Shown piece by piece: positions 50,264 through 53,162 of a stretch of DNA of 64,000 nucleotides. The translations under genes were made by a program, and so were the position numbers. The notes below the pieces were generated by a model. The model was given only the letters and a program-made list of their open reading frames with translations. It did not search any database and had not been told where the DNA came from. How positions within the stretch are numbered: the stretch's first letter is position 1; each line of letters begins with the position of its first letter. This DNA comes from Escherichia coli (GTDB taxonomy: Bacteria; Pseudomonadota; Gammaproteobacteria; Enterobacterales; Enterobacteriaceae), in the NCBI RefSeq assembly GCF_003334255.1, contig NZ_QOWU01000004.1; one strand, given 5' to 3'.

Positions 50264-50890
50264 ATGCTTTGGTCGTTTATCGCTGTCTGTCTTTCCGCAT
50301 GGCTATCTGTGGATGCATCGTATCGTGGGCCAACCTGGCAACGCTGGGTGTTTAAACCGTTAACCCTTCTTCTCCTGCTGTTACTGGCCTGGCAAGCGCC
50401 GATGTTCGACGCCATTAGCTATCTGGTGCTGGCAGGGCTGTGCGCCTCACTGCTGGGCGATGCGCTAACCCTGTTGCCACGTCAACGTCTGATGTACGCC
50501 ATCGGCGCGTTTTTCCTCTCGCACCTGCTGTACACCATCTATTTCGCCAGTCAGATGACGCTCTCTTTCTTCTGGCCTCTACCACTGGTGCTGCTGGTTC
50601 TGGGTGCGCTGTTACTGGCGATTATCTGGACGCGCCTGGAAGAGTACCGTTGGCCTATCTGCACGTTTATCGGCATGACGCTGGTGATGGTGTGGCTGGC
50701 AGGTGAACTGTGGTTCTTCCGTCCGACCGCTCCGGCGCTCTCTGCGTTTGTTGGCGCTTCGTTGCTGTTTATCAGTAACTTTGTCTGGCTGGGGAGCCAC
50801 TATCGCCGACGCTTCCGTGCGGATAACGCGATTGCTGCGGCCTGCTACTTTGCCGGTCACTTCCTGATCGTCCGCTCGCTGTATCTCTGA
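50264..50890 (+). CDS. yhhN: YhhN-family polytopic membrane protein
   Basis: 208-aa hydrophobic ORF directly upstream of zntA. Confidence 0.85.
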
Positions 50891-50895
50891 TAAAA

Positions 50896-50928
50896 CTTGA
50901 CTCTGGAGTCGACTCCAGAGTGTATCCT
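50896..50928 (+). promoter_or_regulatory. ZntR (MerR-type) regulated zntA promoter
   Basis: -35 TTGACT and -10 TATCCT separated by 20 bp, spanning a perfect 22-bp palindrome ACTCTGGAGTCGACTCCAGAGT. Confidence 0.8.
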
Positions 50929-50963
50929 TCGGTTAATGAGAAAAAACTTAACCGGAGGATGCC

Positions 50964-53162
50964 ATGTCGACTCCTGACAATCACGGCAAGAAAGCCCCTC
51001 AATTTGCTGCGTTCAAACCGCTAACCACGGTACAGAACGCCAACGACTGTTGCTGCGACGGCGCATGTTCCAGCACGCCAACTCTCTCTGAAAACGTCTC
51101 CGGCACCCGCTATAGCTGGAAAGTCAGCGGCATGGACTGCGCCGCCTGTGCGCGCAAGGTAGAAAATGCCGTGCGCCAGCTTGCAGGCGTGAATCAGGTG
51201 CAGGTGTTGTTCGCCACCGAAAAACTGGTGGTCGATGCCGACAATGACATTCGTGCACAAGTTGAATCTGCGCTGCAAAAAGCAGGCTATTCCCTGCGCG
51301 ATGAACAGGCCGCCGAAGAACCGCAAGCATCACGCCTGAAAGAGAATCTGCCGCTGATTACGCTAATCGTGATGATGGCAATCAGCTGGGGTCTGGAGCA
51401 GTTCAATCATCCGTTCGGGCAACTGGCGTTTATCGCGACCACGCTGGTTGGGCTGTACCCGATTGCTCGTCAGGCATTACGGTTGATCAAATCCGGCAGC
51501 TACTTCGCCATTGAAACCTTAATGAGCGTAGCCGCTATTGGTGCACTGTTTATTGGCGCAACGGCTGAAGCTGCGATGGTGTTGCTGCTGTTTTTGATTG
51601 GTGAACGACTGGAAGGCTGGGCCGCCAGCCGCGCGCGTCAGGGCGTTAGCGCGTTAATGGCGCTGAAACCAGAAACCGCCACGCGCCTGCGTAAGGGTGA
51701 GCGGGAAGAGGTGGCGATTAACAGCCTGCGCCCTGGCGATGTGATTGAAGTCGCCGCAGGTGGGCGTTTGCCTGCCGACGGTAAACTGCTCTCACCGTTT
51801 GCCAGTTTTGATGAAAGCGCCCTGACCGGCGAATCCATTCCGGTGGAGCGCGCAACGGGCGATAAAGTCCCTGCTGGTGCCACCAGCGTAGACCGTCTGG
51901 TGACGTTGGAAGTGCTGTCAGAACCGGGAGCCAGCGCCATTGACCGGATTCTGAAACTGATCGAAGAAGCCGAAGAGCGTCGCGCTCCCATTGAGCGGTT
52001 TATCGACCGTTTCAGCCGTATCTATACGCCCGCGATTATGGCCGTCGCTCTGCTGGTGACGCTGGTGCCACCGCTGCTGTTTGCCGCCAGCTGGCAGGAG
52101 TGGATTTATAAAGGGCTGACGCTGCTGCTGATTGGCTGCCCGTGTGCGTTAGTTATCTCAACGCCTGCGGCGATTACCTCCGGGCTGGCGGCGGCAGCGC
52201 GTCGTGGGGCGTTGATTAAAGGCGGAGCGGCGCTGGAACAGCTGGGTCGTGTTACTCAGGTGGCGTTTGATAAAACCGGTACGCTGACCGTCGGTAAACC
52301 GCGCGTTACCGCGATTCATCCGGCAACGGGTATTAGTGAATCTGAACTGCTGACACTGGCGGCGGCGGTCGAGCAAGGCGCGACGCATCCACTGGCGCAA
52401 GCCATCGTACGCGAAGCACAGGTTGCTGAACTCGCCATTCCCACCGCCGAATCACAGCGGGCGCTGGTCGGGTCTGGCATTGAAGCGCAGGTTAACGGTG
52501 AGCGCGTATTGATTTGCGCTGCCGGGAAACATCCCGCTGATGCATTTACTGGTTTAATTAACGAACTGGAAAGCGCCGGGCAAACGGTAGTGCTGGTAGT
52601 ACGTAACGATGACGTGCTTGGTGTCATTGCGTTACAGGATACCCTGCGCGCCGATGCTGCAACTGCCATCAGTGAACTGAACGCGCTGGGCGTCAAAGGG
52701 GTGATCCTCACCGGCGATAATCCACGCGCAGCGGCGGCAATTGCCGGGGAGCTGGGGCTGGAGTTTAAAGCGGGCCTGTTGCCGGAAGATAAAGTCAAAG
52801 CGGTGACCGAGCTGAATCAACATGCGCCGCTGGCGATGGTCGGTGACGGTATTAACGACGCGCCAGCGATGAAAGCTGCCGCCATCGGGATTGCAATGGG
52901 TAGCGGCACAGACGTGGCGCTGGAAACCGCCGACGCAGCATTAACCCATAACCACCTGCGCGGCCTGGTGCAAATGATTGAACTGGCACGCGCCACTCAC
53001 GCCAATATCCGCCAGAACATCACTATTGCGCTGGGGCTGAAAGGGATCTTCCTCGTCACCACGCTGTTAGGGATGACCGGGTTGTGGCTGGCAGTGCTGG
53101 CAGATACGGGGGCGACGGTGCTGGTGACAGCGAATGCGTTAAGATTGTTGCGCAGGAGATAA
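50964..53162 (+). CDS. zntA: Zn(II)/Cd(II)/Pb(II)-translocating P-type ATPase
   Basis: 732-aa ORF with CCCDGAC and GMDCAAC metal-binding motifs, CPC motif and DKTGTLT phosphorylation site. Confidence 0.97.
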   Translation: MSTPDNHGKKAPQFAAFKPLTTVQNANDCCCDGACSSTPTLSENVSGTRYSWKVSGMDCAACARKVENAVRQLAGVNQVQVLFATEKLVVDADNDIRAQVESALQKAGYSLRDEQAAEEPQASRLKENLPLITLIVMMAISWGLEQFNHPFGQLAFIATTLVGLYPIARQALRLIKSGSYFAIETLMSVAAIGALFIGATAEAAMVLLLFLIGERLEGWAASRARQGVSALMALKPETATRLRKGEREEVAINSLRPGDVIEVAAGGRLPADGKLLSPFASFDESALTGESIPVERATGDKVPAGATSVDRLVTLEVLSEPGASAIDRILKLIEEAEERRAPIERFIDRFSRIYTPAIMAVALLVTLVPPLLFAASWQEWIYKGLTLLLIGCPCALVISTPAAITSGLAAAARRGALIKGGAALEQLGRVTQVAFDKTGTLTVGKPRVTAIHPATGISESELLTLAAAVEQGATHPLAQAIVREAQVAELAIPTAESQRALVGSGIEAQVNGERVLICAAGKHPADAFTGLINELESAGQTVVLVVRNDDVLGVIALQDTLRADAATAISELNALGVKGVILTGDNPRAAAAIAGELGLEFKAGLLPEDKVKAVTELNQHAPLAMVGDGINDAPAMKAAAIGIAMGSGTDVALETADAALTHNHLRGLVQMIELARATHANIRQNITIALGLKGIFLVTTLLGMTGLWLAVLADTGATVLVTANALRLLRRR

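Follow-up and report, generated by a model that had tools for sequence, protein, structure and literature searches.

A 73-bp intergenic region of Escherichia coli that is almost certainly PzntA, the MerR-type promoter of zntA, with a perfect 22-bp palindrome as the ZntR operator

The 73 bp which separate the genes yhhN and zntA in a 64,000-nucleotide stretch of Escherichia coli chromosomal DNA (hereafter the window) almost certainly correspond to PzntA, the sigma-70 promoter of zntA, and the 22-bp palindrome ACTCTGGAGTCGACTCCAGAGT which they contain to the operator of the regulator ZntR. The anatomy of the promoter, the nature of the downstream gene, the exact match to the published promoter, the agreement with the transcription start site (TSS), the conservation and the symmetry of the half-sites were all computed here, and the binding of ZntR, its metal dependence and the distortion mechanism are taken from the literature; nothing in the sequence argues against this assignment. 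As a promoter feature, PzntA is already known in every respect. Since 1999, it has served as a model of the allosteric activation of transcription by DNA distortion, and as a standard part of zinc/cadmium/lead biosensors. The main finding only confirms that a textbook MerR-type promoter is precisely recognisable from sequence alone. The sole element which may be new is a hairpin specific to read-through RNA, in which the -10 region pairs with the Shine-Dalgarno region.

The intergenic region extends exactly from position 50891 to position 50963 of the window, reads ataaaacTTGACTctggagtcgactccagagtgTATCCTtcggttaatgagaaaaaacttaaccggaggatgcc, and is followed by the ATG start codon at position 50964. 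On the plus strand, it comprises a -35 hexamer TTGACT (50897-50902) with five of the six consensus bases, a spacer CTGGAGTCGACTCCAGAGTG of 20 bp (50903-50922), the optimum being 17 bp, a -10 hexamer TATCCT (50923-50928) with four of the six consensus bases, located 35 bp ahead of the zntA open reading frame, and a Shine-Dalgarno sequence GGAGGA (50954-50959) lying 4 nt before the ATG. Direct reading and a script both returned exactly the two hexamers and the 20-bp spacing claimed in a preliminary description of this DNA, and the perfect palindrome announced there was recovered by the script and by a repeat search, in which the 11-nt arms of the operator displayed 100% complementarity. The palindrome (50900-50921) is its own reverse complement, made of 11+11 nt with no gap, and a G/G pair at the next outward position ends the symmetry. 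The statement that it lies across the 20-bp spacer holds, with one nuance: it covers 19 of the 20 spacer base pairs, takes in the last three base pairs of the -35 hexamer (ACT) and leaves 1 bp free ahead of the -10 hexamer, so that the spacer is not filled exactly.

With a near-consensus -35 hexamer paired to a weak -10 hexamer, a combination stated as a rule for MerR-type promoters in bioRxiv 10.64898/2025.12.02.691827, with a spacer falling in the over-long 19-20 bp range, and with a dyad operator located within the spacer and overlapping the -35 hexamer, the region displays the traits of a MerR-type promoter. An extended -10 motif is absent from the sequence, the TG dinucleotide occurring at -14/-13 instead of -15/-14. 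A generic sigma-70 scanner, which considers spacers of 16-18 bp only, called no promoter at 50891-50963, an outcome to be expected from the over-long spacer.

The published TSS agrees with this anatomy. A distance of 29 nt between the zntA start codon and the TSS is given for strain MG1655 by RegulonDB v10.5 and, independently, for strain EDL933 by Cappable-seq (PMC10469882 Table S5, sheet 3). Mapped onto the window, the published distance places the TSS at an A in position 50935 of the plus strand, 7 nt after the -10 hexamer; therefore, TTGACT occupies positions -38 to -33, TATCCT occupies positions -12 to -7, and the dyad is centred at -24.5. A TSS inconsistent with the hexamers had been named in the preliminary description as an observation that would speak against its reading, and the published TSS fits both of them.

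The open reading frame located downstream (zntA, 50964-53162, plus strand) encodes, in agreement with the E. coli annotation, a Zn(II)/Cd(II)/Pb(II)-translocating P-type ATPase of 732 aa, which matches NF033775 over its full length with 1449 bits, for a cutoff of 1240. The metal-exporting ATPase, which was initially said to lie directly downstream of the promoter, is thus ZntA, the Zn/Cd/Pb P1B-2 ATPase that PzntA is known to regulate. Upstream, the co-directional gene yhhN (50264-50890, plus strand) ends with a stop codon 6 nt before the -35 hexamer. The genes found around zntA are rsmD, yhhN, tusA and yhhQ, and the locus matches the yhhN-zntA-tusA order of MG1655. Comparison of the window with MG1655 3604000-3610000 revealed 7 mismatches in 6001 nt, i.e., 99.88% identity over 6 kb, and none of them affects the promoter, which is identical at 82 of 82 nt to MG1655 3606372-3606453 (the MG1655 position being the window position + 3555487). 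The -35 hexamer, the spacer, the dyad, the TSS and the downstream gene are all those of the PzntA/ZntR system of E. coli K-12 (Brocklehurst 1999; Outten 1999), and the MerR-family (ZntR) architecture attributed to the region at the outset is supported by this base-for-base identity with the published PzntA. The RefSeq annotation places no feature on the zntA promoter, and a full-text search of the literature with the promoter sequence returned irrelevant matches only.

The region intervening between yhhN and zntA was found in all of the complete E. coli genomes (5426/5426). The 40-nt core promoter is identical in 5400 of these 5426 genomes and the 82-nt promoter region in 5363, while a segment of 401 nt including the coding flanks reaches at least 99% identity in only 1892 of them. 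Among the 26 core variants, strain 2022H048 (locus L202, NZ_AP029609.1 303659-303818) exhibits one mismatch at the equivalent of window position 50916, where a C-to-T change converts the right half-site ACTCCAGAGT into ACTCTAGAGT and therefore breaks the perfect palindrome.

Outside E. coli, a protein-anchored genome scan collected 79 loci with ZntA homologues, 10 of which associate TTGAC, a spacing of 19/20 bp, TAnnnT and a dyad, two cyanobacterial loci with another half-site being included in this number. The operators of Citrobacter werkmanii and of an Enterobacter are identical to ACTCTGGAGTCGACTCCAGAGT. Photorhabdus and Vibrio retain TTGAC[TC], the 20-bp spacing and TAnnnT, and their two half-sites have changed in a matching manner, ACCTTGGAG ... 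CTCCAAGGT. In the two cyanobacteria (Microcoleus and Synechococcales; L033 2630-2670 and L063 2853-2893), the promoter with a 20-bp spacer occurs upstream of P1B-ATPase homologues and its dyad differs, AC[AT]TTGACAT..ATGTCAAGGT; another sensor of the MerR type presumably binds this dyad. Half-sites resembling those of PbrR/CadR (CTCTAGAG or CTATAG types) were also found upstream of P1B ATPase homologues.

Environmental sequences were searched with the pattern TTGACYYTGGAG-N4-CTCCARRGT, in which only the -35 hexamer and the dyad are specified, and the spacing was sampled in 77 distinct environmental promoters taken from the first 80 loci. At exactly 20 bp, nAnnnT occurs in 71 of the 77 promoters and TAnnnT in 60 of them; at the other spacings between 16 and 25 bp, the count of nAnnnT is 0-3 of 77, and the 23 occurrences at 15 bp are produced by the search pattern itself. 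Environmental bacteria, however diverse, show next to no departure from the 20-bp spacing in promoters with this class of operator. In addition, at the two degenerate positions of the dyad, the base co-varies with the one at the symmetric position (Fisher p = 3.5e-10 and 2.3e-10, for 114 distinct environmental sequences with phylogeny uncorrected), as predicted for the operator of a homodimer. A ZntR homologue (24-44% identity) adjoins the site in 53 of the 77 environmental loci, a linked regulator being the commonest arrangement among loci with this operator, in contrast to E. coli, whose unlinked regulator corresponds to the less frequent arrangement in this environmental sample. Usually, the environmental regulator lies directly downstream, with a leader of very small size and a gene start ~51-90 nt after the -35 hexamer, and it is sometimes divergent. 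The architecture made of the -35 hexamer, the dyad, the 20-bp spacing and the -10 hexamer is widespread in soil and water metagenomes (L082-L201, e.g., L145, L085, L108 and L146). Taken for what they bring, these comparative data offer a modest context, consisting of the invariant 20-bp spacing and the minority status of an unlinked regulator.

These data bear on the question of whether the palindrome, which contains a SalI site GTCGAC, could be a chance or neutral sequence lying amid hexamer-like sequences. The 22-mer ACTCTGGAGTCGACTCCAGAGT occurs once in the window even with up to three mismatches allowed, for an expected number of 0, and no other perfect palindrome without a gap reaches an arm length of 8 nt in the 64 kb. 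Since an arm length of 11 was reached in 2 of 100 first-order Markov shuffles of the window, so that a perfect 11+11 palindrome appears in ~2% of random 64-kb sequences, the palindrome alone is moderately improbable (~0.02 per 64 kb), which speaks to some extent for chance. In contrast, chance falls far short of explaining both its conservation and its exact placement between the two hexamers ahead of zntA: the core promoter is the same in all but 26 of the E. coli genomes and the operator recurs unchanged in other genera, whereas the coding DNA on either side is divergent, the 20-bp relation to the -10 hexamer holds in 71 of 77 independent loci, and the hexamers fit the published TSS. A chance origin, effectively refuted by the conservation data, retains practically no probability.

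A further reading would make the palindrome chiefly a hairpin of the yhhN RNA, which would terminate or stabilise the transcript at its 3' end, instead of a protein operator. As RNA, it does fold into a 9-bp stem with a 4-nt loop, right behind the stop codon of yhhN, and a consensus scanner flags the operator as terminator-like on the minus strand (50900-50930); this flag, which arises because CAAGTTTTAT follows the palindrome, is probably incidental. The plus strand, however, is devoid of any U-tract after the palindrome, and the Term-seq data contain no 3' end between yhhN and zntA (PMC7815308). Moreover, the dyad and its fixed 20-bp hexamer relation recur in loci without any co-directional gene upstream, often before merR-type genes, the half-site positions co-vary as expected for the site of a dimer, and a footprint of ZntR has been published (PMC3431237). 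Taken together, these observations render a predominant role as RNA hairpin very improbable, and the palindrome is best regarded as the operator of ZntR.

The studies published from 1999 onward comprise DNase I and KMnO4 footprints of ZntR, zinc-inducible fusions in the wild type and in a zntR deletion, and spacer-length mutants. The protection of the PzntA dyad from DNase I by ZntR is mentioned in a passage of PMC3431237, which cites Brocklehurst 1999 and Outten 1999 and describes PzntA by its -35 hexamer TTGACT and a spacer of 20 bp, as compared to 19 bp in other members of the family. A 20-bp spacer is similarly given for PzntA in PMC7911910, along with an identical operator in Enterobacter sp. 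YSU. In PMC9189660 the spacer is given as 19 bp, in contrast to these two sources and to the count made on the sequence, which both amount to 20 bp. The zinc-dependent switch of ZntR from repressor to activator has been measured (PMC9189660), the DNA-distortion mechanism has been reviewed (PMC9909328), and zntA is, per the literature, the sole known target of ZntR (PMC9189660, PMC3431237, PMC9909328).

The literature also helps to decide whether the site could be the operator of another MerR paralogue, e.g., CueR, SoxR or MlrA, or be shared among several regulators of the family, and not be specific to ZntR. Such an assignment draws on the fact that the architecture is common to MerR-family promoters, the -35 hexamer TTGACT being also found in PmerT and PpbrA (PMC3431237), and on the related half-sites, of the same two types as mentioned above, which occur in PbrR/CadR-like sites. 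Nevertheless, passages of PMC9189660, PMC3431237 and PMC9909328 assign this exact site to ZntR on the basis of footprint and genetics, and the 20-bp spacer is restricted to this class in the passage of PMC3431237 which opposes it to the 19 bp of the other family members. The probability that the operator belongs to a paralogue appears extremely small, and ZntR is retained as its cognate regulator.

In the MerR family, the regulator dimer sits on the dyad in both of its states, and a metal-driven distortion of the spacer activates transcription. By this scheme, a ZntR dimer would occupy the dyad centred at -24.5, between the near-consensus -35 hexamer and the weak -10 hexamer, and the 20 bp which separate the hexamers would keep them too distant and out of phase for the RNA polymerase. 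In the metal-free state the promoter would be weak, and apo-ZntR would repress it slightly. Upon binding of Zn(II), Cd(II) or Pb(II), ZntR would remain on the DNA and would under-wind and kink the spacer; the under-wound spacer would realign the hexamers, allowing sigma-70 to engage both of them and transcription to start from position 50935. A search of the PDB by sequence returned no ZntR-DNA complex and, for ZntR, only the C-terminal fragment 1Q08, the closest complexes present being those formed by CadR and CueR; for this reason, the geometry of the distortion by ZntR is deduced from footprinting and from the related regulators CueR, CadR and BmrR, taken as analogues. No zntR gene or MerR homologue was detected in the 64-kb window (best tblastn E = 0.2). 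In MG1655, zntR is located at 3438705-3439130, ~167 kb from zntA, to which it is unlinked, and because the gene falls outside the window, its presence in the strain under study is presumed from the species.

Among the known systems which PzntA resembles, PmerT/MerR from Tn501 and Tn21 is the founding example and possesses the same -35 hexamer TTGACT and a dyad operator in an over-long spacer. Like ZntR, MerR occupies its operator in either state and activates transcription through a distortion of the DNA. PmerT differs from PzntA by a 19-bp spacer, another half-site sequence and Hg(II) as the inducer. A further difference concerns the regulator gene: merR is divergent and transcribed from that very region, and zntR lies at a distance from its target in MG1655. 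Similarly, PcopA/CueR from E. coli consists of a chromosomal MerR-type metal sensor controlling a P1B-type efflux ATPase, and differs by a 19-bp spacer, another operator and a +1 ion (Cu/Ag/Au). CueR offers the best structural model of the distortion, with the CueR-DNA structures 4WLW/4WLS and the transcription activation complexes 6LDI/6XH7. The closest relatives of the regulator with solved structures belong to the CadR/PcadA system of Pseudomonas putida and the PbrR/PpbrA system of Cupriavidus metallidurans; compared to ZntR, CadR gives E = 1e-24 and the PDB entry 5GPE, deposited as 'MerR-family transcriptional regulator', gives E = 2e-23. PpbrA shares the -35 hexamer TTGACT with PzntA, but its dyad is imperfect and its spacer 19 bp long, and pbrR is divergent from the pbrA promoter region (PMC3431237), in contrast to the unlinked zntR of E. 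coli.

Besides the operator, the region contains an inverted repeat, GTATCCTTCGGTTAA (50922-50936) and TTAACCGGAGGATGC (50948-50962), whose arms are separated by a loop of 11 nt (50922-50962 as a whole, plus strand). The 5' arm holds the -10 hexamer and the 3' arm the Shine-Dalgarno sequence. As RNA, the hairpin consists of 15 bp including two G-U pairs; a 63-nt piece which contains it folds with -21.9 kcal/mol (z = -4.3), and folding the repeat as DNA gives a significant result as well. The transcript initiated at PzntA folds with -7.3 kcal/mol (z = 0) and is devoid of the stem. As the TSS at 50935 corresponds to the end of the 5' arm, the full stem occurs only in RNA reading through from yhhN. 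All of the 15 distinct Enterobacteriaceae variants keep the hairpin, with energies from -14 to -28 kcal/mol and loops that vary in length and sequence, and the GGAG of the Shine-Dalgarno sequence is similarly conserved in 15/15. In an alignment of 13 sequences, which is a small and related sample, 88.6% of the cells are paired as compared to at most 57% with the partners slid, three pairs exhibit double changes, and the covariation score exceeds that of all 500 shuffles. The conserved outer arms lie at distances which differ from one genus to another, a variation which speaks for a nucleic-acid hairpin rather than for a dyad bound by protein. The complementarity between the -10 and downstream regions is not general to this promoter class (z = 1.3 vs permuted partners). 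In Rfam, no family was found above threshold for the hairpin, with one spurious miRNA match at E = 0.23, and no description of it was encountered in the literature searched.

A Fur/Zur box in the 5' UTR, suggested by the AATGA-N8-TCATT of other enterobacteria, was rejected on account of an arm spacing of 6 instead of 1 and of the variable outer-arm distance. A study on Y. pestis treats yhhN-zntA as one unit and groups it with a Fur-like motif.

With respect to its function, the hairpin is tentatively, and with some reserve, considered a candidate translational insulator protecting zntA against read-through RNA from yhhN. In zinc-independent read-through RNA, the ribosome-binding site would be sequestered, and the RNA would remain untranslated and be cleared by Rho; in RNA started at PzntA, the ribosome-binding site would be free. 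The context is circumstantial: between yhhN and zntA, the scanner called no terminator on the plus strand. In Photorhabdus, an intrinsic terminator after yhhN, which would be another means of insulation, was looked for and not found, a result which carries no information either way. A region of Rho termination has been located in LB at MG1655 3606645 (plus strand; window ~51158), ~195 nt into zntA (PMC7815308, Supplementary file 2), with a Rho score of 3.48 and p = 7.9e-11 (Adams et al. 2021, PMC7815308). Two other possible roles of the hairpin are that of a stem-loop at the 5' terminus of the PzntA mRNA, which fits most genera but neither E. coli nor Citrobacter, and that of a structure at the 3' end of the yhhN mRNA. 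If true, the role of insulator would show how a tightly metal-gated gene located behind a terminator-less neighbour is protected from leaky expression, and would be of interest for operon architecture and for the design of biosensors.

Finally, the segment GTCGACTCCTGA (50966-50977), which makes up codons 2-5 of zntA, is a near-copy of GTCGACTCCAGA, the operator's right half, with 11 identical positions out of 12. In several other genera, the counterpart is ATGTCGACTCCAGA(G), which matches the operator at 12-13 of 13 positions, in an N-terminal protein region that is otherwise poorly conserved. As far as the sequence permits a prediction, this copy could pair with the left half of the operator in read-through RNA and so add to the occlusion, or it could be a coincidence, for which a rough post-hoc estimate gives a chance of 1e-3 to 5e-3.
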